A DNA stretch of 31,350 nucleotides. Source: Candidatus Micrarchaeia archaeon (GTDB lineage: Archaea > Micrarchaeota > Micrarchaeia > Burarchaeales > JACRGF01). The notes under the pieces are model-generated. The model saw only the letters and a list, made by a program, of their open reading frames with translations, had not been told where the DNA came from and did not search any database. The position numbers and the translations under genes were made by a program. The stretch is from contig JAWCPB010000009.1 in NCBI GenBank assembly GCA_038870455.1, positions 1-31,350 on the forward strand, read 5' to 3'. This document shows positions 2,180 to 27,560 of the stretch, in pieces (the stretch's first letter is position 1; every line of letters starts with the position of its first letter).

Positions 2180-3300
2180 AGGACGAGCGGTTCTCCAGTT
2201 TTCGCGTCGTAGAAACGCACCTCGCCATTATCGAGGTTGTAGAGCGCCGTTGCGACCTGCAGCCTTCCCTCCCCGACCATCTGGCGCAGGAACGGGCTGG
2301 CCGAAAGATACCGTTCGAGCTGGTGCCGCGCGTTGTTCTTTATCGAGTTGTCCATGCTTGCCGCGTCAACCGCGGGCTTTATCGCCTCCACCAGCGAGCC
2401 GATGGGCGTGCCCGGGTCAGGCGTCTTCCCCTCCTCCAGCGCGCGATGCGTTTCCTTCACCGCCCCGCAGCCCGTGTGCCCCATGACCACCAGCAGCCTT
2501 GCGCCGTTTTTCCTCACCGAGTGCTCAACCGAGGCCAGCAGCGTGGGGCTGAAGACGTTTCCGGCAACCTTGAGCGTTGCCACCGCGCCCAGCGGCTGGT
2601 CGAACACTATGTCGGACACGCGCGAGTCGCTGCACGTCACCAGCACGGTGTGCGGGTTTTTCTCCACCTGCAGCTCGCCTGCCCCAAGCTTGCGCAGGAA
2701 CTCGCGGTTTCCGTCCAACAGTCGCCGCACCAGTTCCTGCGGCGCGTTCTTCGCATCAATGAAATGCACTTCCCCTGTCGCGTCGTCGTACATCGCCACG
2801 CCTGTCTTAACTTTCTTGCGCAGCACCTCGCTCTGCGCCAGCATGCTCCTCAGCTGTTCGCGCGCGTTTTTCTCCGCTGCCCTGCGCAGCTCCTCACCTC
2901 TCCTCACCCTCTCAACGGCCTTGCAGTCGTAGTGGCCCACCGCGAGCAGAAACCTGCTTCCCAGGTGCTCCGCCGCGTACTCCGCCGAGCCCAGCAGCGT
3001 CCTGTCGGCGCTCAAGCCCGCAGCATGCAGCCCGAAGACCTCGCCCAGCTGCGCGTTGAATATCCTGTTCGGGCTCATCTTGGCGTTGCTGCACGTGAGC
3101 ATCACCGTGTGCGGCCGCTGTCCCTTCTTCAGCTCCTCAGGCAGGCCGGGAAAAACCGCCTGCCTGAACCGCCCGTTTCCTTCAGCAAGCACTCTCAACA
3201 GCTCCATCCTCTTTCCCTCACCCAAGCGCCTTGCCTTTTCCAGCGCCCTGGCTATGTCCGCTCTGCCAGTTGTTTTTTCCACACTCACCCTTCTCAGCAC
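2176..3300 (-). CDS. Beta-class carbonic anhydrase with two tandem CA domains
   Basis: Two repeats of the beta-CA fold: TCSNAK...GHYDCKAV and TCSDSR...GHTGCGAV. Both end in Y-x-x-x-x-GEV-x-F. GTG start. Confidence 0.92.
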   Translation of the reverse strand: MLRRVSVEKTTGRADIARALEKARRLGEGKRMELLRVLAEGNGRFRQAVFPGLPEELKKGQRPHTVMLTCSNAKMSPNRIFNAQLGEVFGLHAAGLSADRTLLGSAEYAAEHLGSRFLLAVGHYDCKAVERVRRGEELRRAAEKNAREQLRSMLAQSEVLRKKVKTGVAMYDDATGEVHFIDAKNAPQELVRRLLDGNREFLRKLGAGELQVEKNPHTVLVTCSDSRVSDIVFDQPLGAVATLKVAGNVFSPTLLASVEHSVRKNGARLLVVMGHTGCGAVKETHRALEEGKTPDPGTPIGSLVEAIKPAVDAASMDNSIKNNARHQLERYLSASPFLRQMVGEGRLQVATALYNLDNGEVRFYDAKTGEPLVL

Positions 3301-10056: not shown

Positions 10057-10429
10057 ATTCTCACCTCGTTTTTTGAAGACAAAACTTGTTCCCAGAAGAT
10101 TTTTTCTCCTAAAACCGAAAATTTCCTTTTGCGGAAACGAATTTTTCTCCCTGCTGATGAGCATTTTCCTTGAAAAAATATAAATATCTTGCGTTCTCCG
10201 CGAAATCGTTTTAAAGCATTTTATGGCCTCGGCATGAAAAATCTGCAGAAAAAAGCGCTTTTTTCTTTAAAATACGCAAAAAATCAAGCATTCAAGGAAA
10301 AATAGGTGCGTTATTTTATCTGCAAGCGATGAGTTGCAGGAGATAGAGACCCTTTCGCGCGCGGCAGCCCACTAGGTTTAAATTCCTGCTTCACCAAATT
10401 CTCTTTCACTTGTTTGTGGGAGGGGTTGA
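10057..10429. promoter_or_regulatory. AT-rich divergent regulatory region between the thermosome gene and the rpe operon
   Basis: 373 bp, strongly AT-rich against the genome background. TATA-like TTTATA on the - strand near 10178-10183 and TTTAAA at 10377-10382. Perfect 20-bp palindrome at 10247-10266. Confidence 0.6.
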
Positions 10430-11086
10430 ATGGCTTCGGCGACTAGGAGCGGAAAGGTTGAGGTCGCGCCGGCCATCCTCGTCAAGGACAGGCAGAGCCT
10501 TCTCGCCGCAATCAACACAGTCAAGCGCTTCACTCCGCTCATTCACATTGATATAATGGACAACAAGTTCGTGCCCAACTCCACCATCAGCGTGAGCGAG
10601 CTGACCAGCATTCCCGATGGAGTAGGGTACGAGATTCACTGGATGGTCGAAAACCCGGCGGAACTGATCCCACGGGTCAGCGGAAGGCACCTTCACATCG
10701 TGCACATCGAGGCCGTGAGGGATAGGTGGCGGGCTGTTGAGGCCGCTGTGAAAAAAGCAGGCGGAGGGCTTGGGCTGGCCTTCAACCCAGAAACTCCAGT
10801 CGAGGCCGTCCTGCCTTTCATAGGCAGGGTGGAGAGGGTGCTCGTCATGGCCGTGCACCCCGGTTTTTCCGGGCAGCGTTATATTAAAGAAGTTGAGGCC
10901 AAAATAGCTTGGCTGAGGAAAAGGTTTCCTCGGCTTGACATTGAGGTTGATGGGGGGATTGACTTCGCAACCGCAGCGAGCGCTGTCAAGGCGGGCGCCA
11001 ACATTCTTGCCTCCGCGAGCACGATATTCAAGTCGCCTGAGCCTGGGGAGGCAATCGCGCGTTTGAAAAACGCAGGGAGAGAATGA
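10430..11086 (+). CDS. rpe: Ribulose-phosphate 3-epimerase
   Basis: APAIL, HIDIMDNKFVPN, EIHWMVENP, FNPETP, VMAVHPGFSGQ and IEVDGGI. Confidence 0.95.
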   Translation: MASATRSGKVEVAPAILVKDRQSLLAAINTVKRFTPLIHIDIMDNKFVPNSTISVSELTSIPDGVGYEIHWMVENPAELIPRVSGRHLHIVHIEAVRDRWRAVEAAVKKAGGGLGLAFNPETPVEAVLPFIGRVERVLVMAVHPGFSGQRYIKEVEAKIAWLRKRFPRLDIEVDGGIDFATAASAVKAGANILASASTIFKSPEPGEAIARLKNAGRE

Positions 11087-11940
11087 GGCAGAAGATTACC
11101 GACATCAAGACACTGAGGCTCATCGCCAACACGATTAGGCAGGACATCGTGCGGATGCTCTATCATGCCCGCAGCGGGCACTCGGCCGGCTCAATAGGCC
11201 TCGCGGACATATTCACCGCGCTCTACTTCAACGTGCTGTACCACGACCCGCACAACCCTGCTTGGCCTGACAGGGATAGGCTCGTCCTCTCAAACGGCCA
11301 TGTCTGTCCCGTGCTGTACGCCGCGCTCGCAAACGCCGGGTATTTCCCCAAAGAGGAGCTGCTCACCCTCAGGAGGCTGGGCAGCAAGCTGCAGGGGCAT
11401 CCTCACAGGGGAAGCCTGCCTGGCGTAGAGAACTCTTCGGGCCCGCTGGGCCAGGGCCTGTCGCAGGCCGTCGGCATGGCCATCGTCGCCAAGGCGGAGA
11501 GAAAGAGGTGGAGGGTTTATTGCGTGACGAGCGACGGCGAGCATGATGCTGGCCAGACCTGGGAGGCTGCCATGCTTGCTGCAAAGCACCGCCTCGGCAA
11601 CCTCACGGTCATCGTCGACCGCAACAACATCCAGATAGACGGATTTACTGAGGAAGTGCTTCCGCTCGAGCCCTTTGCCGAAAAGTACAGGGCCTTCGGC
11701 TGGCACGTCCTAGAAGTCGACGGCCACAACATAAAAAAGCTCATCGACGCCTGCGAGGAAAGCCGGGCCATCTATGAACGGCCGACGGTCATCATCGCCC
11801 ACACCATTCCGGGAAAGGGTGTGCCGTTCATGGAGTTTGTCACCGAATGGCACGGCAAGCCGCCTTCCAAGGAACAGGCGGATGAGGCTCTTGCAGTGCT
11901 CGACGTGGAAAAGAAGGCCATCGAAGAGGGCTTCGTGTGA
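11083..11940 (+). CDS. Transketolase, N-terminal (ThDP-binding) subunit
   Basis: SGHSAGS, DRLVLSNGH, LQGHP, SGPLGQGLS, SDGE...GQTWEA, DGHN and WHGK. ATGA overlap with rpe. Confidence 0.96.
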   Translation: MRQKITDIKTLRLIANTIRQDIVRMLYHARSGHSAGSIGLADIFTALYFNVLYHDPHNPAWPDRDRLVLSNGHVCPVLYAALANAGYFPKEELLTLRRLGSKLQGHPHRGSLPGVENSSGPLGQGLSQAVGMAIVAKAERKRWRVYCVTSDGEHDAGQTWEAAMLAAKHRLGNLTVIVDRNNIQIDGFTEEVLPLEPFAEKYRAFGWHVLEVDGHNIKKLIDACEESRAIYERPTVIIAHTIPGKGVPFMEFVTEWHGKPPSKEQADEALAVLDVEKKAIEEGFV

Positions 11941-11944
11941 GAAC

Positions 11945-12931
11945 ATGATAAGAAGCGACATGCACCTCGACCTGTCCGGGGCGACAAAAGCGCCGAGCAG
12001 GGACGGCTTTGGCAAGGCGCTTGTCGAGCTGGGTGAGGCGGACAGGGACGTGTGGGTGGTCACCGCGGACGTCTCCGAATCAACGCGCACGCACTGGTTT
12101 GCAGAAAAGTTTCCCACAAGGTTTGTTCAAGTCGGCGTCGCCGAACAAAACCTGGCCGGCGTGGCCGCGGGCATCGCGGCCTGCGGCAAAAAAGTTTTCA
12201 TCTCGGCTTACGGAGTCTTCTCGCCGGGCAGGAACTGGGACCAGATAAGAGTGGCCGTCTGCTACAATGACGTCAAGGTGGTTGTGCACGGCTCGCACAC
12301 GGGCATCACCGTGGGGCCTGACGGCGCATCGCACCAGGCGCTCGAGGACATCGCCATAACGCGCGTGCTGCCTAACCTCTCGGTGATCGCGCCGGCAGAC
12401 GCAGAGGAGGCGAGGAAGGCAACGCTCGCCGCAGCGGCCGTGCCGGGGCCCGTTTATATTCGGACGGCGAGGGAAAAGTTTCCCGTCTTCACCACTCCCC
12501 AGACCCCGTTCGAGTTCGGCAAGGCCAACGTTTATAGGGAAGGCAGCGATGTCGCTATTTTCGCGTGCGGCCCGATGGTGTTCGAGTCGCTCAAGGCGGC
12601 CGAGAGGCTGCAGGGACAAGGCATCTCCGCCGCGGTGATCGATTTGCACACGATAAAGCCGATCGACAGGAAGACGATTGTCGAGTGGGCCAGGAAGACA
12701 GGCCTGCTGGTCTCTGTCGAAGAGCACCAGGTGAATGGTGGGATGGGCTCTGCCATCGCCGAAGTGCTCGCCGAGGAGCACCCGACGCGCCTGCGCAGGC
12801 ACGGCGTCTATGATACATTCTGCGAGTCGGGCGACGTTCCGGACCTCATGAAAAAGTACAGGCTTGACGCGGCAGGCATAGCCGAAGTGGTCGCCGAGAC
12901 CGTGAAGGCGAGGGGGAGGGTGTTGGCGTGA
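11945..12931 (+). CDS. Transketolase, C-terminal subunit
   Basis: RDGFG, GVAEQNLAGVAAG, GPDGASHQALED, GPVYIR, TIKPID and VEEHQVNGGMGS. Start set at ATG 11945, just after the N-subunit stop. Confidence 0.96.
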   Translation: MIRSDMHLDLSGATKAPSRDGFGKALVELGEADRDVWVVTADVSESTRTHWFAEKFPTRFVQVGVAEQNLAGVAAGIAACGKKVFISAYGVFSPGRNWDQIRVAVCYNDVKVVVHGSHTGITVGPDGASHQALEDIAITRVLPNLSVIAPADAEEARKATLAAAAVPGPVYIRTAREKFPVFTTPQTPFEFGKANVYREGSDVAIFACGPMVFESLKAAERLQGQGISAAVIDLHTIKPIDRKTIVEWARKTGLLVSVEEHQVNGGMGSAIAEVLAEEHPTRLRRHGVYDTFCESGDVPDLMKKYRLDAAGIAEVVAETVKARGRVLA

Positions 12932-13584
12932 AGTTTTTTCTGGACACCGCGAATGTCGAAAAGATAAGGGAGGCCGCGGCCCTGGGCGTCATAGAGGGCG
13001 TTACGACCAACCCCACGCTCATCATGCAGGAGGGGCGTGACCACAAGACCGTCATTCAGGAGATTGCAAAAATCATCAGGGGGCCGATCAGCGTTGAGGG
13101 CGCGGAGGACAGCTGCGACAACATCGTGCGCGACGCGCTCGAGTTCGCCAAGTGGGCGCCTAACGTGGTGGTCAAGGTCCCGATGGATGTCGAGGGCATA
13201 AAGGCGGTGCGCGTTCTAGAAAAGAGGAACATCCGCACGAACGTGACGCTCGTGTTCTCGCCCTCTCAGGCGCTGCTCGCCGCAAAGGCGGGCGCGAGCT
13301 ACGTCTCGCCGTTCATCGGCAGGCTCGACGACATCTCTGCTGACGGCGTGCAGCTGGTGCGCGACATAGTTCAGGTCTTCAGGAACTATCCATTCAAGAC
13401 CGAGGTCATCGTGGCCTCCATTCGTCATCCAATGCACGTTGTCGAGGCGGCCAAAGCGGGCGCGCACATAGCCACCATCCCGCCCGGCGTGCTCGAGAAG
13501 ATGTGGCGGCATCCGCTGACCGACAGGGGCATAAAACAGTTTCAAGAAGACTACAAAAAGGCTCTCGAGAAGGCGAAGAAGTGA
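12928..13584 (+). CDS. tal: Transaldolase (short TalC/Fsa family)
   Basis: FFLDTAN, GVTTNPTL, ISVE, VVVKVP (Schiff-base Lys), NVTLVFS, YVSPFIGRLDD and ASIRHP. The SPF motif and the PPP context favour transaldolase over F6P aldolase. Confidence 0.93.
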   Translation: MKFFLDTANVEKIREAAALGVIEGVTTNPTLIMQEGRDHKTVIQEIAKIIRGPISVEGAEDSCDNIVRDALEFAKWAPNVVVKVPMDVEGIKAVRVLEKRNIRTNVTLVFSPSQALLAAKAGASYVSPFIGRLDDISADGVQLVRDIVQVFRNYPFKTEVIVASIRHPMHVVEAAKAGAHIATIPPGVLEKMWRHPLTDRGIKQFQEDYKKALEKAKK

Positions 13585-13588
13585 GGCG

Positions 13589-14551
13589 ATGAGAGAACGC
13601 TCCACCGCCATAGCCTATCCCACCATTCCTGTTCTCCTTCTCTGCGGGCTCAAGGACCCTGCCCGCCGCATTCCGTTCTATTCCACGATGGGGCTCGCGG
13701 TGACTGACTTCGGGGAGAGGGTGAGGACGGAGACTACGGTCGAGCGCGCACCCAAGGGAATCTCATTCACGGTCAACGGCGTTCCGGTGTCGGGAAAACG
13801 CGGGGCCGACATGCTGGCGATGGCAAGGCTTCTCTGCAAAAGGGCGCGCTACAAGGGCGGGCTGCGCATTTCATCCGTTAATCACGACATCGTCACCGGA
13901 AGCAGCGACTCGGGCGCCGCCGCTCTCGCAACCGCGCTCGCGGATTTTCTGGAGCTGAAAATGTCCAAAGAGGAGCTGGCTGAGATCGCCAGGCTTGGAA
14001 GCGAGAGCGTCTACCGCTCGCTGTACGGCGGGCTGTCCCTCACCGAGGTGCGCGGAGGGCGGTGCATCGCCGTGCAGCTCGCTTCTCCAGAGAAGCTGTG
14101 GGCATGGCGCGTGTTCGCAGTTCCTTTCACTGAGCTTGGCGCGCGCCACTCCGCGGACGAGATTCACGAGCGGGCGGTCAGGCACCCGCACTTTCCCGAG
14201 AGGGTTTGCTCCAGGCCCTCTTTCGTCAAGAGGGTGAGGGCTGCGCTACGGAGGGGCGATCTCGAGCGCGTCATGGCCATCGCCGAAGAGGATGCCATGA
14301 ACTTTCACTACATCCTCGAGTGGGTCGGCGTGCGCGTCATCAAAGACCCCATGTTCGCGGCGTGCAACCTCGTGAGGAGAATGCGTGAGGAGCGGGGGGT
14401 GCGCGCGTGGTTCACCGTGGCCGGCGGCAACATGGTTTATGTCTACACGCTCGCGCGGAACGCGCGCAGGGTCGAGGCCGCGTTGCGCAGGGAGTACGGC
14501 AGCAGGGTGCTCGCCTACAAGATAGCCGGCCCCCCGAGGATTGTGAGGTGA
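13589..14551 (+). CDS. Mevalonate 3-kinase-like GHMP protein (Thermoplasma Ta1305 type)
   Basis: Diphosphomevalonate-decarboxylase fold with AYPTI, N..IVTGSSDSGAAA, SESVYRSLYGGL, DEIH and EED...FHYIL..VGV.VI, matching the recalled Thermoplasmatales M3K pattern. The decarboxylase catalytic Asp (D-A-G-P-N) is absent (TVAGGNMVYV). Confidence 0.85.
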   Translation: MRERSTAIAYPTIPVLLLCGLKDPARRIPFYSTMGLAVTDFGERVRTETTVERAPKGISFTVNGVPVSGKRGADMLAMARLLCKRARYKGGLRISSVNHDIVTGSSDSGAAALATALADFLELKMSKEELAEIARLGSESVYRSLYGGLSLTEVRGGRCIAVQLASPEKLWAWRVFAVPFTELGARHSADEIHERAVRHPHFPERVCSRPSFVKRVRAALRRGDLERVMAIAEEDAMNFHYILEWVGVRVIKDPMFAACNLVRRMREERGVRAWFTVAGGNMVYVYTLARNARRVEAALRREYGSRVLAYKIAGPPRIVR

Positions 14552-14555
14552 GAGT

Positions 14556-15344
14556 GTGTTCGCCAAAAGCGAGGAGGAGCGTGCCCTCATAGCGACCGGG
14601 CTGAGCTTCGGCGAGGCGGCAAAGTACATCGGCAGGACGGGCGAGCTTGATGCCAAGCACAGGAAACGTTTTGACATCTTCATGCGCTATATGCGCGGAA
14701 TTTCAAGCGGGGAGGTGAACGAGCCGCTCATCGTCATCGTCGGAGGCATTCCGGGCACGGGCAAGACCACGCTCGCCAGCGAGCTCGCCGTCCGTCTTGG
14801 CATCCGCATCGTGCTCGGGGGCGACACGCTGCGTGAGTTCCTGAGGGGCATTGTCGATGAAAAGGCGCATCCAGTGCTTTTCTCGAGCGTGTACGAGGCG
14901 TGGAAGCACTTTGGCCCGGAGCCAACGCGTGATGCGGTCATAAAGGGCTATGTTGAACAGTCGCGCATCATAAACGCGTGCTTGGCGCGCATGCTCGACC
15001 GCTGCGAGCGTGACGGCGAGTCCGTCGTGCTCGAGTACCTTCACTTCCTGCCTTCTCTGCTGGTGCACCAGCTGCGTTTCAAGGGTGCGGTTGGCATGGC
15101 GCTCGAGCTGAAGAGCAAGGAAGAACACATCCAGAGGTTTCGCATGCGCCAGAGGTACAGCCACTTCAAGTCGCCCGTAGAGCGCCTCATCAACAACCTC
15201 GACAAGTACGAGGCTATGAGCGCGCACATGGTTGAAGACGCGCGCCGCCACAACATTCCCGTGCTCGAGAGCGGCGACATTCAGCGCGCCATCGACCAGG
15301 CGCTCGACATCGTTTATGAGAAGATGGAGAGATTGCTCAAGTAG
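14556..15344 (+). CDS. Mevalonate-3-phosphate 5-kinase-like P-loop kinase (2-phosphoglycerate kinase family, Ta0762 type)
   Basis: GGIPGTGKT P-loop, VLGGDTLREFLR, SVYEAW, IKGYVEQ, DGESVVLE and RLINNLDKYEAM. It lies between the two GHMP genes. GTG start. Confidence 0.82.
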   Translation: MFAKSEEERALIATGLSFGEAAKYIGRTGELDAKHRKRFDIFMRYMRGISSGEVNEPLIVIVGGIPGTGKTTLASELAVRLGIRIVLGGDTLREFLRGIVDEKAHPVLFSSVYEAWKHFGPEPTRDAVIKGYVEQSRIINACLARMLDRCERDGESVVLEYLHFLPSLLVHQLRFKGAVGMALELKSKEEHIQRFRMRQRYSHFKSPVERLINNLDKYEAMSAHMVEDARRHNIPVLESGDIQRAIDQALDIVYEKMERLLK

Positions 15345-15448
15345 GTGGTAAGCTGCCTGCCACACCCCAACCATCACGCGGCAGGAGCGGACAGCGCGGC
15401 CTGCTGCCCTCCGCTGTCCAGTCCTCCATAGAGCGTGCGACAGAGGAC

Positions 15449-16558
15449 ATGCTTTCGCTGTTGCGCGCGCGAGGATGGGGGGAAGAGCCTCTCCCACGGC
15501 TCAAGCCCCTCGGCAAAATAAGCGGCCGCGCAGCCTCAAGAGCCTGGTCCATCCTCGGGCTAGAGAAGTACCTGGGCATGGTCGACTCCAGGCTGCGCAT
15601 CGCCTTCTTTCCAAGCCTCACCCTGACAAACGACTCGACAACAACGAATGCGCTGGTCGAGTTCGATCCATCGCTTGCCGACGACCTCATCGTCATCGGG
15701 GGAAAAAAAGCGGAGGGCAGGCCGAGGGAGAGAGTGATCGAAACGGTCGATGCTTTTCGGGCGCGCTTTGGAATCACCTCGCGTGTGCGCGCCGCGACCG
15801 AGAACATCTTCAAGGGAGGCGGCTCGGGCAAGGGGCTCGGCACGAGCGCGGCCGCTGGAGCGGCGCTCGCCCGCGCGCTCGTGGGGGCCGCTCTTCCCGA
15901 GCACGTGGCAAACAAGCGCCTGCTCGCCCTCACCGCGCGCATTCTTGCAGGCTCGGCAACGCGCAGCGCGGCCGGCGGCTTCGCCCTGTGGCCTTCTCAC
16001 GCCGGCTATCTCGCCCGCCCGGACGACTCCTACGGCATCCGCGTTGATGACGGAAAAACAGACCTGAGGCTCGTCGTCGTTCCCATCCCGCAGTCCACTA
16101 GGACTGAGGACGCGCACGCGGCCGCAGTACGCTCGCCCCATTACGTCGCGTGGGCGAGGAGGAAGGCGAGCGAGGTTCCCGCCCTTCTCAACGCCGTGCT
16201 CGCGCGCGACGTCGAGGCCATAGGCAGGCACGCCGAGGAGGACTCGGTGTGGCTGAACAGGATTCTCACGAGCGGAGGCGGGTTTGACAACTGGGAGAAG
16301 GACACGCGCGCAGTGTTCGAGCTCGTGCGCGGCCTGCGCCGGCGCGGCCTGCTCGCGTATTCTTCCATAGACACCGGTCCGTCCGTTGCCGTCATAACGA
16401 CTTCGAGGGATGCCGAGGCGGTGCGCGGCCACCTCCTCTCTGCCCTCCCGCAGGAACGCGCTTCCTCCGTTTTTCTCGCCGATGTTGCCGGGCCGCCCGA
16501 AAAACTCGGGGGCGAGGGGGTAAAGAGCCTGATGGCGCAGCTCGAGGCGGCCGCATGA
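15449..16558 (+). CDS. Mevalonate 3,5-bisphosphate decarboxylase-like GHMP protein (Thermoplasma/Picrophilus BMD type)
   Basis: ILGLEKYLG..D...IAFFPSL, KGLGTSAA, GSATRSAAG...W.S, TEDAH....SPHY.AW...K, and a retained catalytic Asp in SIDTGPS. The true start may lie upstream. Confidence 0.82.
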   Translation: MLSLLRARGWGEEPLPRLKPLGKISGRAASRAWSILGLEKYLGMVDSRLRIAFFPSLTLTNDSTTTNALVEFDPSLADDLIVIGGKKAEGRPRERVIETVDAFRARFGITSRVRAATENIFKGGGSGKGLGTSAAAGAALARALVGAALPEHVANKRLLALTARILAGSATRSAAGGFALWPSHAGYLARPDDSYGIRVDDGKTDLRLVVVPIPQSTRTEDAHAAAVRSPHYVAWARRKASEVPALLNAVLARDVEAIGRHAEEDSVWLNRILTSGGGFDNWEKDTRAVFELVRGLRRRGLLAYSSIDTGPSVAVITTSRDAEAVRGHLLSALPQERASSVFLADVAGPPEKLGGEGVKSLMAQLEAAA

Positions 16559-16630
16559 GCGAAGTCGCTGCAGTGATCGGCGAGCGGAGGAGGCTCAAGC
16601 CCCTTCGCCGCGGCGAACGAGGCGGGCCGC

Positions 16631-17134
16631 ATGGCTGAAGTCGTTGCGGTGGTTGACGAGCGCGGCCGGGCAGTCGGAAGGGCGGCGCGGCGGACTGCTC
16701 ACAAAAAACGCCTTTTGCATCGTTCCGCGCACGTGCTTCTCTTTGACTCTGCCGGCAGGCTCTTCGTCCAGCGTCGCGCGCTCTCCAAAGACCTTTATCC
16801 CGGCAAGTTCGCCGCCAGTGCGAGCGGCCACGTGAGGCTCGGCGAGGGCGTGAGGCAGGCCGCGGCGCGCGAGCTCGCCGAAGAGCTCGGCCTCAGGGGC
16901 CTGAAGCTCATTCGCATTGCAACCATCCTCTCCTCCACACCTGAGGAGAATGAACTCTGCACCTACTTTAAAGCCGTTCTTCCGGAAGGCGCGCGCGCCA
17001 GCCCGAACAGAAAAGAACTTATACTGCGGGACAGCAGATTCCTCTCATGGCGGCAGGCCGCAGCGCTGAACCGGGAGAAGATTGCCCCCTCTCTCGCCAT
17101 CGCGCTGAGTCTGCGCAGACAGGGAAGGGTTTGA
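16631..17134 (+). CDS. Nudix-fold protein of the type 1 IPP isomerase (IDI1)/YfcD-like family
   Basis: VVDE.G...G, AH..RLLHRS, VQRRA..K..YPG, SGHV..GE...AAARELAEELG (Nudix box) and EENELC. The canonical IDI1 catalytic Cys is absent. Confidence 0.8.
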   Translation: MAEVVAVVDERGRAVGRAARRTAHKKRLLHRSAHVLLFDSAGRLFVQRRALSKDLYPGKFAASASGHVRLGEGVRQAAARELAEELGLRGLKLIRIATILSSTPEENELCTYFKAVLPEGARASPNRKELILRDSRFLSWRQAAALNREKIAPSLAIALSLRRQGRV

Positions 17135-17135
17135 G

Positions 17136-17912
17136 ATGAGCCTTGTTTTTGTCAAGCTCGGCGGCTCCCTCATCACCGACAAGACTAGGCCCTACACCCC
17201 CCGCGTTGAAGTGATCGAGAGGCTTGCGCGCGAGCTCGCCGGCTCCCTGCGGCAGAAGCGCCTGCGGGTTCTCGTCGGACACGGAAGCGGTTCCTTCGCC
17301 CACACGAGCGCCGCGAAATACGGCATAACCGAGGGGATGAGGGGAAAACGCGGCCTGCAGGGCTTCGCGAGGGTGCATCACGATGCCGCGCGGTTAAATC
17401 ATATCGTCACCCACGCGCTGCTCGATGCCGGCGTGCCGGCCGTGCCCGTGCCGCCCTGCGCCTCGGCCGTGGCGCACGCGCGCTCGCTCGCTGCATGGCC
17501 GCACGAGCCGCTCCTGCGTTTCCTCAACGCCGGCCTCGTGCCGGTCGTTTATGGCGATGTGGTGCTCGACCTATCGCAGGGCGCGGCCGTGCTCTCGACC
17601 GAAGCGCTGTTTGCCTACCTCGCTCCGCGCCTCCATCCAGCACGCGTGCTCGTGCTCGGCGAGACCGATGGCGTTCTTGACAGCCGGGGGAGAACGGTTC
17701 CGGAGATAACGCGGGCGAACCATGCAAAATTGCTCCCGCTCTTAGGGGGCGCGCGCGGCACTGACGTCACGGGCGGCATGCGGACCAAGGTCGCCGCCCT
17801 GCTGGCCATCGCCGATGTCGCGCCGTGCGCCATCATCAACGGCTTGAGGGAGGGTGCGCTGGAGAAGGCTCTGCTCGGAAAGCCTGTCGGAGGCACGAGG
17901 GTGCGGGCTTGA
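17136..17912 (+). CDS. ipk: Isopentenyl phosphate kinase
   Basis: Amino-acid-kinase fold: VKLGGSLITDK, GHGSGSFAH (IPK signature His), VPVVYGDVV and DVTGGMRTK. Confidence 0.94.
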   Translation: MSLVFVKLGGSLITDKTRPYTPRVEVIERLARELAGSLRQKRLRVLVGHGSGSFAHTSAAKYGITEGMRGKRGLQGFARVHHDAARLNHIVTHALLDAGVPAVPVPPCASAVAHARSLAAWPHEPLLRFLNAGLVPVVYGDVVLDLSQGAAVLSTEALFAYLAPRLHPARVLVLGETDGVLDSRGRTVPEITRANHAKLLPLLGGARGTDVTGGMRTKVAALLAIADVAPCAIINGLREGALEKALLGKPVGGTRVRA

Positions 17913-18163
17913 ACGCGCAGGAGATACTCAGGGCCGGCAGAGTACAGCTCAGGGTCAAGCACGTGGGCATTCTCCAGTTCCGCGAGTTCGTGGTGAAGAG
18001 GCTGAGCACCCCCATCGGCTCTTACCCGGTGCTCTACCTGAACAAGTTTCTTGACGCCAGCGAGTGCGTGCGCGTTGCCGAAGAGACGGGCCTTCCGGTG
18101 CAGACGCTGAACGGAATCTTCTTTCCCAAGGGAAAGGCCGCCAAAGATTTTGTAGGCCTCTAG
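17909..18163 (+). CDS. Small hypothetical protein (84 aa)
   Basis: TTG start overlapping the ipk stop (TTGA), genome-typical codon usage, and a stop overlapping the convergent gene. Translation MNAQEILRAGRVQLRVKHVG...PKGKAAKDFVGL. Confidence 0.7.
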   Translation: MNAQEILRAGRVQLRVKHVGILQFREFVVKRLSTPIGSYPVLYLNKFLDASECVRVAEETGLPVQTLNGIFFPKGKAAKDFVGL

Positions 18164-18642
18164 ACGTATTTTGCTGCGAGCGCGCCGATGGCCGCCAGCG
18201 CCGCCTCAATGATGCCGCCGGCCACGATGCCGATGATTGCGGCAACCACTGCAACGCCTGCGCCGAGCGCTCCCGCCTGCATCAGCGAGAGTATCACGTC
18301 CAGCGCCCTGCCCACTGCGTTGGCGATCACTCCCAAAGCAGCTCCGGCAACAAGCGCTTGCGGAAGCCCGCCTCTTTCGCGCTTGACCATTGTCCAGCCC
18401 ACGTAAAGGCCGGTCGCAAGCGCCAGGATGAGCGACACCAGTGCCGTGATGAACACCAGCGGCGGAACCGCCAGTGCGGCCAGGAAGCCTATCACACTCC
18501 ACACCACAAGCACGGCAAGCGGGAGCTTTATTGCCTCGTAGTATTCCCGGGGTGTCTTGCCCAGTACGGCTCCGGCAGGCGCTTTTGCAGCCTTCACCTG
18601 CGGCTTCGCCCTAGCCTTGGCCTCCCTCGCTTTCTTCGCCAT
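18160..18642 (-). CDS. Hypothetical integral membrane protein (about 4 TM helices)
   Basis: Basic N-terminus MAKKAREAK followed by four long hydrophobic Gly/Ala-rich segments. AGGTGG SD before ATG 18642. Confidence 0.8.
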   Translation of the reverse strand: MAKKAREAKARAKPQVKAAKAPAGAVLGKTPREYYEAIKLPLAVLVVWSVIGFLAALAVPPLVFITALVSLILALATGLYVGWTMVKRERGGLPQALVAGAALGVIANAVGRALDVILSLMQAGALGAGVAVVAAIIGIVAGGIIEAALAAIGALAAKYV

Positions 18643-25360: not shown

Positions 25361-26533
25361 ATGCGCGTCTTCCTGTCAGCCTGCGGCGAAGGGCTGGGGC
25401 ATTCCTCACGCACGCTCGCGCTCTACAACGAGCTCAAGGGCAGGGGGCACGATGTTGTTGCGGCGAGCTACGGCATGGCGTTGAAGAGGCTGCGGGCGGC
25501 CGGGGCCAGAACGATCCAGACGAGGCCCGAGGTGCTCATGACGGGAGCCGATGGTCGGTTCGACCTCGTGGGCTCGATCATCCGCTCGCGCGGCACTCCC
25601 CTTGACGTCGCCAAGGCCTTCCTGGCCGAGCGCGCCTTCATACGCTCATTCGACGCCGATGTCGTGGTGAGCGACGCGCGCTTTGCCACGGTGCTGGCCG
25701 CGTTTGCTCAGCACGTTCCTGTCTTCTACATCACAAACCAGACTCACTTCATCCTGACCGGGGCCGAGGAGAGGCAGAAGGGGCGCACGCTGCTGGCCAG
25801 GGTGTTCAGCGCGCAGGAGCTCGAGCGCTCCGTCCTGGAGAGCATCATAGAGGTTCCGCTCAGCCTGCCGTATCCTTTCGCGCAGGAGATCGTCATCCCC
25901 GACTTTCTCCCCCCGGATACCATTTGCGCGCCGCTGCTCTCCAACGACCCGCGCGTGCGCGGCAAGACGCGTTTCGTGGGCCCCCTGTCGGTTCTCGCCT
26001 CCCGCCCGCCTCCTGTTCATCGCCCATCAAAAACCCCGCGCGTGCTCGTCACGCTGGGTGGGCAGGCTTTCAGGGCCGGCGAGTTCGACCGCCTGCTGGG
26101 CGTGCTGAGGAGAATGACCGACTTCAATTTCACCGTGGTCAGCATTTTTGCGAAAAAGAGAGCGCGCGCGGGCAATGTGCGCGTGCGGCCTTTCGTGCGG
26201 GACATCTTTCCGCTCATGTCAGCCGCCGACCTGCTCGTCATGCCTGCCGGCCACAGCGCCATCATGGAATCCATACTGCTGTGCAAGCCGGCGCTGCTGC
26301 TTCCGGACGCGCAGTGGCCCGAGCAGGAGAGCAACGCCGTCGTGTACGAGCGGCTGGGGCTCGGCCTGCGCTCTTCCCCGCTGGAACTGCATCTGCTTCC
26401 CGCGAAGCTGCGGGAGCTGCGCGAGCGAAGAGAGGAGTTTGTCCCTCGCCTGCGCAGGCTTTCGCTCGAGGCGAGGGGCGCGCAGAACGGCGCGCGCAAC
26501 GCGGCAGAGCTGTGCGAGAGTGCGGCTACTTGA
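25361..26533 (+). CDS. GT-B glycosyltransferase (MJ1255/MurG-like GT28-related family)
   Basis: CGEGLGHSSR, DVVVSD, ITNQ, IPDF.PP..I, FVGP, LVTLGG, AGHSAIMES...KP and PEQESNA. Alternative start at 25352. Confidence 0.88.
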   Translation: MRVFLSACGEGLGHSSRTLALYNELKGRGHDVVAASYGMALKRLRAAGARTIQTRPEVLMTGADGRFDLVGSIIRSRGTPLDVAKAFLAERAFIRSFDADVVVSDARFATVLAAFAQHVPVFYITNQTHFILTGAEERQKGRTLLARVFSAQELERSVLESIIEVPLSLPYPFAQEIVIPDFLPPDTICAPLLSNDPRVRGKTRFVGPLSVLASRPPPVHRPSKTPRVLVTLGGQAFRAGEFDRLLGVLRRMTDFNFTVVSIFAKKRARAGNVRVRPFVRDIFPLMSAADLLVMPAGHSAIMESILLCKPALLLPDAQWPEQESNAVVYERLGLGLRSSPLELHLLPAKLRELRERREEFVPRLRRLSLEARGAQNGARNAAELCESAAT

Positions 26534-27530
26534 CTTCTATGCCTCCTCGGCCGATGGGCGCCTCGAGCACACGGAAGCCTTTTTTTTGCACGGCTTCTGC
26601 AACCTTCCGCTTGTTTTCCTCCTTAACGAGAATGAGCACGCTTCCTCCCACTCCTCCTTTGCCGGTCATCTTCTCTCCGAGCGAGCCGTTTTCCCTTGCC
26701 GCCGAAATCGCATCCTCAATTTCCGGGGTGGAGACGCCCGCGTTCCTGAGCAGCTCGTGGTTGTCCCGCAGCGCGTCACCGAGCGCGGCCGCATCGCCGT
26801 CTTTCCTGAGCTCGGCTACCACCGTGTCATAAACAGAAAGAAACGGCAGCACGATTTTTTCTCTCTCTTCCGGAGTCAGCTCTTCCGGTTTTTTGTTTAT
26901 TCCGTGCGCGGCAGCGAACTTGGCATACATCGTGGTGCGCGTGCTCCACTCCCCCCTCGCCGTGTCTATGAAAAGCAGCGTGGTGCCCAGCGGCAGCTCC
27001 ACCTCTTTCTTCTCGAATCCGAAGCGCAGCGGGGCAAAGCTCTTTCTGACCTTCACGGGCCCCTCAAGAATCGCCTTTGCATCCATTCCGCTGGGCGCCT
27101 TTCCGTGCGCCAGCCTGTCCGACTCCTGCGCGCACTGGAAGAGCTCATCCACTCCAGGCACGATCCCGAGCGCGCTGTACAGCGCTGCGGCAAATGCGAC
27201 CGCCAACGAGGTGCTCGCGCCCATTCCCCTGGGAGACTTTATGTCAAACCATGCGATGAGCGGCCGCGGGAGCGCCGCCTTTTTGCACGCCCTCGTCACG
27301 ACCTGGGCGTACGGCCTCATGATGCGCGAGCCCAAGAAGCTTCCGTTCGCATACGCGCTCGCCGTGCCGAGGCGCGATTCCATCTCCACGCGCAGCTCGC
27401 CCTGTCCCTCGCTGATGCTCACGGCATTCCGCACCTCAACGGGCACAACGAGCGAGGGCGCGCCGTACACCACAAAGTGCTCGCCCGTCAGGATGACGCG
27501 CGAGGGCGCGCTCGCAAGGATTTTTTCCAC
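26526..27530 (-). CDS. mvk: Mevalonate kinase-like GHMP kinase (divergent)
   Basis: SAPSRVILTGEHFVVYGAP, P.GMGASTS, AHG..PSGMD, NHELL...GVST and KMTGKGG.GG. GTG 27530 chosen from TATA spacing; TTG 27536 is the alternative. Confidence 0.8.
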   Translation of the reverse strand: MEKILASAPSRVILTGEHFVVYGAPSLVVPVEVRNAVSISEGQGELRVEMESRLGTASAYANGSFLGSRIMRPYAQVVTRACKKAALPRPLIAWFDIKSPRGMGASTSLAVAFAAALYSALGIVPGVDELFQCAQESDRLAHGKAPSGMDAKAILEGPVKVRKSFAPLRFGFEKKEVELPLGTTLLFIDTARGEWSTRTTMYAKFAAAHGINKKPEELTPEEREKIVLPFLSVYDTVVAELRKDGDAAALGDALRDNHELLRNAGVSTPEIEDAISAARENGSLGEKMTGKGGVGGSVLILVKEENKRKVAEAVQKKGFRVLEAPIGRGGIEVK

Positions 27531-27560
27531 GGGCAAGATTGTGCGCTTGGGGTTTTAAAC

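Follow-up and report, generated by a model that had tools for sequence, protein, structure and literature searches.

Gene content and order of the locus

The window is the whole stretch of DNA that was analysed, and it is 31,350 nucleotides long. The features identified in it are shown in Table 1. Five co-oriented genes (g1 to g5) had been predicted at 13589-17912, and they were found exactly there, all on the + strand. The gaps g1-g2, g2-g3, g3-g4, and g4-g5 are 4, 104, 72, and 1 nt long. The pentose-phosphate genes run in the same direction as g1 and are joined to it by overlaps or 4-nt gaps. Together they form a ten-gene co-directional string with the pentose-phosphate genes first and the M3K module last. 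The only AT-rich gap of the string precedes the whole of it; the gaps g2-g3 and g3-g4 are rich in GC and lack a TTTAAA-type box. The GC content of the window is 55-66% in 2-kb steps. The AT-rich region may be the promoter of the string, the ten genes are probably read from one promoter, and the pentose-phosphate genes would then be co-transcribed with g1 to g5.

Table 1. Features of the window with their coordinates, strands, and sizes.
Feature	Coordinates	Strand	Size	Basis or remark
AT-rich intergenic region with TTTAAA-type boxes	10165..10429			letters read directly
Ribulose-phosphate 3-epimerase, split transketolase (N and C parts), transaldolase/FSA	10430..13584	+		NCBIfam
g1, M3K-like GHMP protein	13589..14551	+	320 aa	Pfam, NCBIfam, structure match, tree
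g2, COG2074 P-loop kinase, long form, candidate mevalonate-3-phosphate 5-kinase (M3P5K)	14556..15344	+	262 aa	
g3, MDD-fold decarboxylase, Asp kept, candidate mevalonate 3,5-bisphosphate decarboxylase	15449..16558	+	369 aa	
g4, IDI1/YfcD-like Nudix protein	16631..17134	+	167 aa	
g5, isopentenyl phosphate kinase (IPK)	17136..17912	+	258 aa	NCBIfam, Pfam
Divergent mevalonate kinase (MVK)-family GHMP kinase	26526..27536	-	336 aa	8.6 kb downstream of the module

The host genome is a 1.04 Mb MAG that is 90% complete. It had been expected to be a DPANN archaeon, and it was placed as Micrarchaeia, not Thermoplasmatales. The matching sequencing runs carry the label 'hot springs metagenome'. A 127-kb contig (L004) of a congeneric MAG (95% complete) is collinear with the five genes and all their flanks, and it also repeats the order of ribulose-phosphate 3-epimerase, split transketolase, and transaldolase. 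The dN/dS against the congeneric MAG is 0.06-0.17 across g1 to g5 (0.10 for g1, 0.06 for g2, and 0.15 for g3). The six neighbours that were compared likewise (Rpe, TktN, Tal, NadE, PAC2, and aIF2a) have dN/dS of 0.04-0.19. All five genes are under purifying selection.

The two MDD-fold proteins and the COG2074 kinase

The genes g1 and g3 are the sole two MDD-fold genes of the genome (tblastn). The original prediction stated that g1 has lost the catalytic Asp of the decarboxylases and that g3 has kept it. Both were confirmed by the motifs TVAGGN in g1, where Ala replaces the Asp, and SIDTGPS in g3. The NCBIfam equivalog cut-offs were missed by g1 (M3K, 166.5 bits, cut-off 440), g2 (M3P5K, 139.9 bits, cut-off 250), and g3 (BMD, 127.9 bits, cut-off 560), which counts against placing them in the M3K route. 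The cut-off was passed by g5 (IPPK_Arch, 178.3 bits, cut-off 120), which also matches Pfam AA_kinase at 111.9 bits.

In Pfam, the protein g1 scores 78.2 bits for MVD-like_N and 53 bits for M3K_C. Its closest solved relative is Ta1305 (4rkp) at E 5.2e-31 and the second match is at 6.6e-11; no decarboxylase comes within twenty orders of magnitude of Ta1305. The tree check places g1 inside the M3K clade (16 of 60 rows, support 100/100) and outside canonical DMD and PMD. The larger tree also places it in the M3K clade (36 of 105 rows, support 100). M3K has been reported to differ from MVD at the KYWGK, P-loop, SES, and Asp283 positions (PMC4357925), and g1 shares these differences (no KYWGK, GSSD in the P-loop, SES, and no Asp283). 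One Arg of TaM3K has been called essential (PMC9254496); its counterpart in our alignment is an Arg that all 18 aligned homologues share.

The decarboxylase g3 scores slightly better on the NCBIfam PMD model (MvaD, 144.3 bits) than on the BMD model, both far under their cut-offs, which counts against its reading as a bisphosphomevalonate decarboxylase (MBD). Its matches to solved DMD and PMD chains and to PtoMBD (7t71) all lie at E 1e-21 to 1e-22. The tree check groups g3 with MBD in a 22-row clade that includes the Thermoplasmatales enzymes (100/99) and excludes canonical PMD and DMD. A PMD-labelled sequence branches as the sister of the MBD-like superclade (98/93). The position of the g3 sub-clade as sister of the Thermoplasmatales MBD clade is weak (81/16), which is a further point against. 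The motifs EK[YF]LG, KGLG, and TRSAAG..W.S are common to g3 and MBD, and at the EK[YF]LG position PMD has [IV]KYHG and DMD has IKYWGK. A 3-residue insertion in the P-loop is common to g3 and PtoMBD relative to the solved DMD and PMD chains in pairwise alignments. The Asp kept in g3 is the Asp required in MBD (PMC9254496). All seven genomes of the wider MBD-like clade carry M3K and one COG2074 gene, and MVK was not found at E<=1e-15 in six of the seven, which argues that this clade, the g3 sub-clade included, works without mevalonate 5-phosphate.

The Haloarchaea-type route consists of MVK, phosphomevalonate decarboxylase, and IPK. The window likewise encodes an MVK-family protein, an MDD-fold decarboxylase with the Asp, and IPK. 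MVK could therefore be followed by g3 as an ATP-dependent phosphomevalonate decarboxylase and by IPK, with g1 and g2 otherwise employed. The higher PMD score favours such a route. ATP-dependent PMD-like chemistry is also conceivable for g3 because its GHMP P-loop is intact and a basic residue, an Arg, is kept on the beta9-alpha8 loop. However, branches of 100/100 and 100/99 part g3 from canonical PMD, g3 reads EKYLG instead of KYHG, and relatives of the same clade have no MVK. The two extra kinases clustered with g3 would also be left unexplained, even though they are conserved and under selection, and loci of Micrarchaeota, Aenigmatarchaeota, and Iainarchaeota repeat the g1-g2-g3 order. We consider this route improbable. 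In the M3K route, g3 is predicted to act without ATP.

The kinase g2 is the single COG2074 copy in the genome. Its top NCBIfam model is 2-phosphoglycerate kinase (2PGK, PRK04220) at 161.8 bits, which exceeds its M3P5K score and counts against the M3P5K reading. The neighbours in the Atlas are also automatically named '2-phosphoglycerate kinase family'. Pipelines had been expected to give this label to g2 and diphosphomevalonate decarboxylase to g1 and g3, which is only partly right; in NCBI the nearest homologues appear as 'hypothetical protein' and 'AAA family ATPase'. By these scores g2 could be a true 2PGK for cyclic 2,3-diphosphoglycerate synthesis that stands at this position by coincidence. 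Against this, its score is less than half of the cut-off of 343 and the match is limited to the kinase core (model positions 87-294). All 17 M3K-bearing genomes that are not of the Altiarchaeota type have exactly one COG2074 gene, and none of these 17 genes passes the 2PGK cut-off. Among 80 loci, 27 have a g2 homologue directly beside the M3K-like gene, all of them among the 37 loci outside Thermoplasmata and Altiarchaeota, and the adjacency is kept across at least four phylum-level labels. The characterised Thermoplasmatales M3P5K is also a COG2074 member (PMC8975820). A 2PGK role is thus very hard to credit. The tree check groups g2 with M3P5K, in a long-form clade (24 rows, support 100) opposite the Thermoplasmatales short-form clade; because this tree was built without a bona fide 2PGK as outgroup, it cannot separate M3P5K from 2PGK.

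The proposed route, the Nudix protein, and the retained kinase

We propose that g1 to g5 encode a Thermoplasma-type module of the lower mevalonate pathway (the rare, 3-phosphorylating M3K route), with a probability of about 0.62. What was observed directly is the gene content, the residues, the placement in trees, the synteny, and the purifying selection, and every enzymatic activity of the module is predicted from homology. The protein g1 would phosphorylate the 3-OH of mevalonate and g2 the 5-OH of mevalonate 3-phosphate. The decarboxylase g3 would remove the 3-phosphate and decarboxylate mevalonate 3,5-bisphosphate to isopentenyl phosphate, which IPK would convert to IPP. The gene order mirrors this reaction order, as had been predicted. 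IPP would be converted to DMAPP by a type-2 IDI that is encoded elsewhere in the genome (contig C6, 367.9 bits).

The Nudix protein g4 had been described as IDI1-like. It matches Pfam NUDIX at 56.7 bits; on the NCBIfam models it reaches 82.2 bits for IDI and 73.9 bits for YfcD, against cut-offs of 127 and 152. Its closest solved relative is the E. coli IDI-like Nudix hydrolase YfcD (2fkb, 3.4e-13), ahead of the IDI1 chains (about 1e-9). The Nudix fold is common to g4 and IDI1, and three His of g4 align with His of E. coli IDI. The relation to IDI1 stands. A point of difference from IDI1 is the Nudix box of g4, which by eye fits the full Nudix consensus. An isomerase role is unlikely because no Cys was found in the alignment at or beside the IDI1 catalytic position and a type-2 IDI is present. 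By these residues g4 is probably a hydrolase rather than the pathway isomerase. It would be accessory and may convert IPP and DMAPP to monophosphates that IPK recharges. The g4-IPK pairing occurs in the window and the congener only, among 30 loci examined, and it resembles the IDI-I/IPK synteny reported for CPR bacteria (PMC6107057).

Elsewhere in the genome are HMG-CoA synthase, HMG-CoA reductase, the type-2 IDI, two prenyl synthases, GGGP synthase, two UbiA-type transferases, and CDP-archaeol synthase (CarS). The isoprenoid branch is complete as judged by homology. The lipid self-sufficiency that had been suggested is unproven, as G1P dehydrogenase (PF13685) was not found in the genome (90% complete) or the congener (95% complete).

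The host has kept an MVK-family gene, unlike Thermoplasmatales, and this counts against a pure M3K route because such a route would not need MVK. The gene matches TIGR00549 over the whole model at 123.7 bits, under the cut-off of 163. Its protein has intact motifs, its best solved relatives are all MVKs (2x7i, 7.9e-19), and it lies inside the MVK group on a long branch. The dN/dS of 0.11 indicates purifying selection. MVK-family matches of 120-230 bits are present in 19 of 21 genomes of the order, so that the gene is inherited and not stray.

The archaeal-type route consists of MVK, AcnX phosphomevalonate dehydratase, a UbiD-type decarboxylase, and IPK, and it is the route of most relatives in the order. 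MVK and IPK are common to this route and the window, and AcnX was not found in the window genome (one 20-bit match, under the cut-off) or the congener. AcnX is present in 15 of the 21 sampled genomes of the order (14 at about 490-530 bits and the fifteenth as a split copy), usually within a few kb of MVK. Only the genus of the window has the M3K cassette and no AcnX among the 21 genomes, which points to replacement of the module with MVK kept. It seems that the cassette has taken the place of the usual archaeal route in this one genus, and it would stand functionally where the relatives have AcnX; the direction of the replacement is read from this distribution.

The retained kinase could also take part in a converging (grid) route. 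MVK would make mevalonate 5-phosphate, g1 would also or mainly phosphorylate its 3-OH, and the 3,5-bisphosphate would be reached in either order before g3, with g2 and MVK as parallel 5-kinases. The intact, selected, and inherited MVK-family gene supports this, and its product needs another outlet when AcnX, the usual consumer of mevalonate 5-phosphate in the relatives, is not found. Two Aenigmatarchaeota loci have M3K, M3P5K, decarboxylase, and MVK in a row. The Altiarchaeota-type genomes pair MVK with an M3K-like gene and have no COG2074 gene (11 of 11) or second MDD-fold gene, which also counts against the M3K route proper. However, the KYWGK phosphate-binding motif is lost in g1 exactly as in Thermoplasmatales M3K, which is not known to use mevalonate 5-phosphate. 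MVK is dispensable for the cassette, as none was found in six of the seven MBD-like-clade genomes, and the function of the MVK-like protein may have changed along its branch of 2.84 substitutions per site. We regard the grid as a possible arrangement, though an unlikely one, and the M3K route is preferred.

Distribution and origin of the module

The Thermoplasmatales route comprises Ta1305 (M3K), Ta0762 (M3P5K), Ta0893/PtoMBD, and Ta0103 (IPK) (PMC5177888, PMC9254496, PMC4357925). The four enzyme families and the reaction logic are common to the window. Both M3K proteins have no catalytic Asp and no diphosphate-binding motif, both decarboxylases keep the Asp, both 5-kinases are COG2074 P-loop proteins, and IPK is the last step in both. 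However, Thermoplasmatales M3K has Thr where the M3K of the window has Ala, and the Thermoplasmatales M3P5K is short whereas the long form of the window adds a conserved N-terminal extension of about 55-75 aa. M3P5K and MBD are adjacent in two of the four Thermoplasmatales genomes in which both were found (five searched), compared with a reaction-order cluster in the window. At each of the 31 Thermoplasmata loci, M3K stands as a lone gene.

The original prediction regarded the pathway as narrow to Thermoplasmatales and its presence here as novel. This does not hold, as reports of M3K and MBD from Micrarchaeota appeared in 2018 (PMC6107057) and again in 2022 (PMC8975820). The window adds a further Micrarchaeia genome that carries M3K, M3P5K, and an MBD-like gene. 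In 2024 the known range of the route grew to include Aenigmatarchaeota, Altiarchaeota, and Heimdallarchaeia (PMC11052028), and this non-acidophile distribution and DPANN/Asgard affinity agree with the window. No assayed enzyme from the non-Thermoplasmatales clades of the route was found in the parts of the pathway literature that were covered.

A transfer from host to symbiont had also been suggested. Such a transfer from Thermoplasmatales has been inferred for Ca. Micrarchaeum harzensis and relatives (PMC8975820). The M3P5K of four Micrarchaeota (L035, L043, L051, and L074) and the MBD of two of them (L035 and L043) nest with Thermoplasmatales. A recent gift of this kind, as for the acid-mine Micrarchaeota, is already contradicted for the window and is highly improbable. 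The genes g1, g2, and g3 each lie in DPANN/Asgard sister clades and not inside the Thermoplasmatales clades. The identity of the M3K is 26-34% to Thermoplasmata versus 36-42% to Heimdall-, Alti-, and Aenigmatarchaeota. The N-terminal extension of g2 is absent from the Thermoplasmatales short form, and the cluster occurs in 0 of 31 Thermoplasmata loci. By tree placement, the cassette is a DPANN/Asgard version of the predicted pathway.

The synteny check revealed that the M3K-M3P5K-decarboxylase order recurs across DPANN loci. In the parts of PMC6107057, PMC8975820, and PMC11052028 that were covered, neither this gene order nor the Nudix-IPK pair nor the AcnX replacement within one taxonomic order is described. 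The recurrent order in DPANN and the replacement of AcnX within one order are what we have identified as new here. The window genome also differs from Ca. Micrarchaeum harzensis, which has no HMG-CoA reductase (PMC8975820), by having this gene.

The gene string and its genome

Five co-oriented genes (g1 to g5) had been predicted in the window, and open reading frames were found exactly at those positions. These genes and other features of the window are listed in the table below. The reading of g1 to g5 as a Thermoplasma-type pathway in the form of a compact operon, in which mevalonate 3-kinase (M3K), mevalonate-3-phosphate 5-kinase (M3P5K), plus the decarboxylase of mevalonate 3,5-bisphosphate (MBD) form a cassette that is followed by a Nudix protein and IPK, is probably right. 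We give this reading a probability of about 0.6, where all activities are predicted from sequence.

Features of the window (NCBIfam figures are bit scores followed by the equivalog cut-off)
Feature	Positions	Strand	Description
Carbonic anhydrase	2176-3300	-	374-aa protein with two beta-carbonic-anhydrase (Pro_CA) stretches; apparent tandem duplication or fusion
rpe, split tkt, tal/FSA	10430-13584		Non-oxidative pentose-phosphate genes that continue into the mevalonate genes; the joints are 4-nt overlaps or gaps
g1	13589-14551	+	ORF; MVD-like_N and M3K C-terminal domain (Pfam); NCBIfam M3K 166.5/440
g2	14556-15344	+	ORF; P-loop kinase families (Pfam); NCBIfam 2PGK 161.8/343, M3P5K 139.9/250
g3	15449-16558	+	ORF; MVD-like_N (Pfam); NCBIfam PMD 144.3/475, BMD 127.9/560
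g4	16631-17134	+	ORF; NUDIX (Pfam); NCBIfam IDI 82.2/127, YfcD 73.9/152
g5	17136-17912	+	ORF; AA_kinase (Pfam); NCBIfam IPK 178.3/120, passes
66-aa ORF	17963-18163	+	Right after the IPK gene; coding-like GC3; without Pfam match; counterpart at the same place in the congeneric contig L004, 54% identical
MVK-family GHMP kinase	26526-27536	-	TIGR00549 123.7 bits, whole model 1-276

Genes g1 to g5 are the last of a ten-gene co-directional string in which they are preceded by genes for ribulose-phosphate epimerase, a split transketolase, and transaldolase/FSA, and the joints of the string are 4-nt overlaps or short gaps. Because the sole AT-rich, TATA-like gap that was seen when the intergenic DNA was inspected by eye lies upstream of the epimerase gene, and the g2-g3 and g3-g4 gaps are GC-rich, one transcript may reasonably be inferred for the whole string. 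No RNA runs were listed for positions 10300-18200, and one metatranscriptome of the same study contained almost none of the region's words, which has no bearing on expression. The linkage of pentose-phosphate and mevalonate genes is also exhibited by the congeneric contig, and its metabolic reason is not obvious.

The window covers the whole of contig C9 (31,350 bases) of a 1,038,003-base genome (G000) in 51 contigs, which is 90.04% complete and 0.86% contaminated. The description of the host as GC-rich and apparently DPANN was correct, as the GC of the contigs is about 56-63% and Micrarchaeia are placed under Nanobdellati (DPANN) in the NCBI taxonomy. The remaining genes of C9 are clearly archaeal (aRF1, thermosome, PCNA, PriS/PriL, aIF2-alpha, GINS, and RpoL), and the nearest homologues of g1 (87%) and g2 (91%) belong to a MAG titled Candidatus Micrarchaeia archaeon. 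The genome collection places G000 in a phylum whose genomes are small and belong to a single class. Gene order in the 127,666-base contig of the congener (MAG G044) matches that of the window between the carbonic anhydrase and agmatinase genes. Contamination or mis-binning was rejected since that contig has these five genes too, with their flanks unchanged. The sequencing runs that match the window are recorded as 'hot springs metagenome', and no tRNA or Rfam families were found in the window.

Assignment of the cassette genes

The only MDD-fold genes in the genome are g1 and g3, and its only COG2074 gene is g2. The protein of g1 matches PF22700 (78.2 bits) and the M3K-specific C-terminal domain PF21433 (53 bits), and each score exceeds the cut-off of 27. 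It falls below the NCBIfam M3K equivalog (NF040848; EC 2.7.1.185), whose cut-off is passed by none of the 301 genomes of the phylum sample. The closest solved relative of g1 is the M3K of T. acidophilum (Ta1305, E 5.2e-31), and the best decarboxylase is found at E 6.6e-11. It has been reported that M3K departs from true decarboxylases at positions 17-21, 72, 139-141, 192-196, and 283 in S. epidermidis numbering (PMC4357925). In the alignment, g1 follows M3K at those positions, where it has LLLCG in place of the KYWGK of diphosphomevalonate decarboxylase (DMD), the P-loop GSSD, and SES; GSSD and SES are the same as in Thermoplasmatales M3K. The first GHMP protein indeed does not have the decarboxylase catalytic Asp, as had been claimed, since g1 has Ala in TVAGGN, a position at which the M3K of Thermoplasmatales carry Thr. 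All 18 aligned homologues share the loop Arg of g1, which by alignment corresponds to the Arg reported to be essential in TaM3K (PMC9254496).

The MDD-fold trees were built from a chosen subset of 35 of the 79 proteins of M3K-like loci and 70 of the 150 listed representatives, which were labelled by their best NCBIfam model. In the careful 60-protein tree of the MDD fold, the 16 M3K-like rows are all united in a single clade (100/100), and the 105-row quick tree agrees (100). The M3K rows of Thermoplasmatales form a sub-clade (100/100), and g1 lies outside it with the congener and one other MAG (100/98). Gene g1 thus belongs to an M3K branch without assayed enzymes, in a clade apart from DMD, phosphomevalonate decarboxylase (PMD), and MBD. 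The tree check that accompanied the original prediction came out in its favour for g1, which groups with M3K and not with canonical DMD or PMD, and g1 is probably a mevalonate 3-kinase.

For g3, matches to the P. torridus MBD (7t71) and to the solved chains of DMD and PMD all lie at E 1e-21 to 1e-22, and pairwise similarity is therefore not decisive. MBD, PMD, and DMD share one fold, and a fold match would not separate them. The protein is below the cut-off of the BMD model (NF040847) and scores slightly higher with the PMD model. In the 60-protein tree, g3 is found in a DPANN clade of nine rows (100/98). This clade is nested in one of 22 rows (100/99), in which Thermoplasmatales-type MBD are the only sequences of a characterised group. 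The clade of 22 rows lies in turn within a 28-row clade (100/100), apart from canonical PMD and DMD, so that the same tree check also favoured the prediction for g3. The sister link to Thermoplasmatales MBD is weak (81/16), and g3 is outside the characterised MBD sub-clade. The g3 clade and true MBD have EK[YF]LG, KGLG, and TRSAAG..W.S in common, where PMD has [IV]KYHG and DMD has IKYWGK, and pairwise alignments exhibit a three-residue P-loop insertion in g3 and PtoMBD relative to the solved DMD and PMD chains. The catalytic Asp that the second GHMP protein was said to keep is present, as SIDTGPS of g3 aligns with DTGTS of 7t71 and DTGPS of Thermoplasmatales MBD; this residue (Asp309 of PtoMBD) has been reported to be required, by mutagenesis (PMC9254496). 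Both g3 and real MBD retain the P-loop and a basic loop residue, and the sequence is thus not decisive on whether g3 would be ATP-independent, with an ATP site that has become a lipid pocket.

Seven genomes (G324-G328, G332, and G333) have a decarboxylase that the tree places in the wider MBD-like clade. Five of them are in the g3 sub-clade, and the decarboxylase of G326 lies just outside it. Mevalonate kinase (MVK) was not found at E<=1e-15 in six of the seven, for which completeness is not given, and all seven have M3K and one COG2074 gene, which argues that the MBD-like clade works without mevalonate 5-phosphate. Phylogeny, signatures, and co-occurrence together suggest that g3 is probably an MBD, with ATP-independence as a predicted property.

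The protein of g2 matches the M3P5K model NF008996 over positions 2-191 of 193, with the Walker A motif GIPGTGKTT. It is under the M3P5K cut-off, and the 2-phosphoglycerate kinase (2PGK) model PRK04220 scores higher, also under its cut-off. COG2074 has been reported as the family of both 2PGK and Thermoplasma M3P5K (PMC8975820). A sequence search gave no close solved structure for g2 (best PDB match adenylate kinase 9, E 1.5e-4), the ESM Atlas gave only generic zeta-toxin/2PGK-family P-loop clusters that are not discriminating, and a word-index search gave 4 proteins only. The COG2074 tree (32 rows, none a verified 2PGK) exhibits two clades, each with support of 100. The short form of about 200 aa consists of Thermoplasmatales and four Micrarchaeota; the long form consists of 24 rows including g2 and has a conserved N-terminal extension. 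Of the 28 genomes that bear M3K, 17 have a single COG2074 gene; the other 11, all of the Altiarchaeota type, have none. None of these 17 genes passes the 2PGK cut-off. The M3K-like gene adjoins a homologue of g2 in 27 of the 80 loci, and all of these are among the 37 outside the Thermoplasmata and Altiarchaeota labels. The argument is thus genomic, from co-occurrence and adjacency to M3K, and g2 is probably an M3P5K.

Synteny, distribution, and history of the cassette

The gene neighbourhoods were compared in a tblastn census over 80 loci, and the results for the main groups are shown in the table below.

Neighbourhoods of M3K-like genes
Group	Loci	COG2074 next to M3K	Other neighbours
Thermoplasmata	31	0	None; M3K solitary
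Micrarchaeota	9	7	5 with a decarboxylase no more than 5 kb away
Aenigmatarchaeota	5	5	4 with a third gene
Heimdall/Asgard	8	7 (order M3P5K-M3K)	No decarboxylase in the vicinity
Altiarchaeota	12	0	9 with a bona fide MVK no more than 6 kb away

The scattered arrangement suggested for these genes in Thermoplasmatales was confirmed for M3K and not fully for the other two genes, as M3P5K and MBD are adjacent in two of the four genomes in which both were found (five Thermoplasmatales genomes searched). These co-oriented pairs are L098/L099 of Oxyplasma meridianum and L096/L102 of E-plasma.

Other arrangements were identified among the loci. The third gene of the Aenigmatarchaeota-type clusters (L016, L017, L018, L023, L029, and L046) groups with DMD and not with MBD, with support of 100 in the 105-row tree and 100/99 for three rows in the 60-protein tree, and in L018 and L023 it is followed by MVK. 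The Altiarchaeota-type loci (L006, L008, L010, L012, L015, L019, L028, L031, L032, and L055; genomes G306-G316) combine the M3K-like gene and a genuine MVK (218-251 bits), mostly beside it or within about 6 kb. COG2074 genes are missing from all 11 of these genomes, and a second MDD-fold gene is missing from 10 of them. Their M3K-like protein cannot be part of the standard M3K route. The Heimdall/Asgard loci (L009, L011, L013, L014, L020, L025, and L076) and L007 have an M3P5K-like gene and then an M3K-like gene. In genomes G317-G321, MVK adjoins a DMD-like gene (PF22700, 196-212 bits) and an MBD-like gene is absent, so that this mixed set contains no evident candidate for decarboxylation of the bisphosphate.

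The novelty claimed for the pathway outside Thermoplasmatales does not stand. It has been reported that a few Micrarchaeota have M3K, MBD, and IPK (PMC6107057, Mol Biol Evol 2018), that the three key genes are present in Micrarchaeota (PMC8975820, Nat Commun 2022), and that homologues of M3K, M3PK, and MBD from non-acidic sites are found in Micrarchaeota, Altiarchaeota, Aenigmatarchaeota, and Heimdallarchaeia (PMC11052028, Microorganisms 2024). The main claim was therefore in print before, and the finding leaves the map of isoprenoid biosynthesis as it was. The full-text literature search gave no description of the recurrent gene order, the replacement of AcnX by the cassette within one order, the retained MVK, or the Nudix-IPK pair. 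The DPANN/Asgard M3K, M3P5K, and MBD of a compact operon that is maintained by selection are good candidates for the first enzymology from non-acidophiles, which would test the explanation of the M3K route as an adaptation to acid.

An M3K-like gene (E<=1e-20) is found in 14 of the 301 sampled genomes of the phylum and in 9 of the 176 high-quality ones. Among the 21 genomes of the window's order, two low-scoring MDD-fold genes are found only in G000 and the congener; six other genomes have a DMD-like gene, and 13 have no MDD-fold gene. The archaeal-type phosphomevalonate dehydratase (AcnX) is found in 15 of the 21, a set that takes in the second genus sampled from the family of G000. It is intact in 14 (about 490-530 bits), split in one, and usually located a few kb from MVK. 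AcnX was not found in the congener or in G000, where the search gave only one 20-bit match below the cut-off. The simplest reading of these distributions would be that the genus swapped the archaeal-type middle section for a cassette that it imported, with MVK and IPK retained. The alternation of archaeal-type and Thermoplasma-type modules on the same MVK/IPK backbone in one order is a natural experiment in pathway replacement.

The host-to-symbiont origin that had been suggested for the cassette, from Thermoplasmatales, is not upheld, because g1, g2, and g3 are all found in DPANN/Asgard sister clades and the donor is thus not Thermoplasmatales. The nearest neighbours of the three genes differ, namely L005 for g1, a 'Diapherotrites' protein for g2, and L027 for g3. 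Host-derived transfer in Micrarchaeota has been proposed (PMC8975820). Four other Micrarchaeota loci (L035, L043, L051, and L074) have Thermoplasmatales-type M3P5K, and L035 and L043 also have Thermoplasmatales-type MBD. These loci are mosaic, as their M3K is of the DPANN type, and they agree with the published transfer for part of the pathway only. The 1.6-Mb genome of L005 (G326) has a g1-g2-g3 cluster and the closest non-congeneric M3K (58%); its record is titled 'uncultured Methanosarcinales archaeon', a label that is doubtful for such a genome.

Mevalonate kinase and the rest of the isoprenoid pathway

The MVK-family gene of the window scores below the TIGR00549 cut-off of 163. The best solved relatives of its protein are all MVKs, and it forms a very long branch inside the MVK group. 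MVK-family matches (120-230 bits) are found in 19 of the 21 genomes of the order, 7 of which pass the cut-off, and the gene is therefore regarded as the inherited, fast-evolving MVK of the lineage. Its dN/dS relative to the congener is 0.11. Thermoplasmatales gave weak matches only, to sugar-kinase-like GHMP proteins (57-82 bits), so the organism does not simply replicate the Thermoplasma arrangement.

With an MVK on the contig, mevalonate 5-phosphate may also be phosphorylated at position 3, in a converging route. A joint scenario, in which the AcnX/UbiD section was discarded, a DPANN/Asgard M3K-M3P5K-MBD cassette was imported, MVK was kept, the bisphosphate is formed in either order, and Nudix and IPK act as a valve, is unlikely as a whole. 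The AcnX/UbiD middle section relies on iron-sulfur and prenyl-FMN cofactors. Were the scenario true, mevalonate 3,5-bisphosphate would be reachable by phosphorylation at 3 then 5 or at 5 then 3, and some members of the M3K-like family outside Thermoplasmatales would be phosphomevalonate 3-kinases. It would also explain the Altiarchaeota-type genomes with only MVK, an M3K-like gene, and IPK, and the Nudix-IPK pair would be a monophosphate/diphosphate valve on the product pool. The Thermoplasma-type pathway remains the preferred reading of g1 to g5.

Gene g5 is assigned as IPK by the equivalog NF040647, which it matches over positions 3-259 of 259. The role of g4 as an IPP isomerase is not convincing, because among solved structures it is matched best by the Nudix hydrolase YfcD, the Cys position is Ser or Ala, and a type-2 IDI is present on contig C6 (367.9 bits, cut-off 281). 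The protein reads ASASGH, and its counterpart of the mutated Cys position in 1ow2 is Ser, whereas opposite the Cys of 2pny it has Ala; the IDI1 catalytic Cys is the one beside the metal-binding His (C67 of E. coli IDI). The scores with the IDI1 models TIGR02150 and PRK03759 are 82.2 of 127 and 52.7 of 105.8. The Nudix box, as judged by eye, fits the full consensus. Relatives of g4 are found in 97 of 301 genomes, two of the 97 (G203 and G034) being flagged as unpublished, and most relatives in the phylum also do not have the Cys.

Elsewhere in the genome, HMG-CoA synthase (568 bits), HMG-CoA reductase (334.6 bits), two prenyl synthases, GGGP synthase, two UbiA-type transferases, and CDP-archaeol synthase (CarS) were identified. 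The G1P dehydrogenase family PF13685 was not found in G000 or in the 95%-complete congener and is matched in 5 of the 21 genomes of the order. GGGPS, UbiA-type transferases, and CarS, which would need a glycerol-1-phosphate backbone from some source, are present in both genomes. The lipid genes of G000 may bear on the dependence of such symbionts on host lipids, with the missing G1P dehydrogenase match as a reservation. In comparison with the cultured Ca. Micrarchaeum harzensis, G000 differs in having the full acetyl-CoA-to-IPP branch and most ether-lipid genes.
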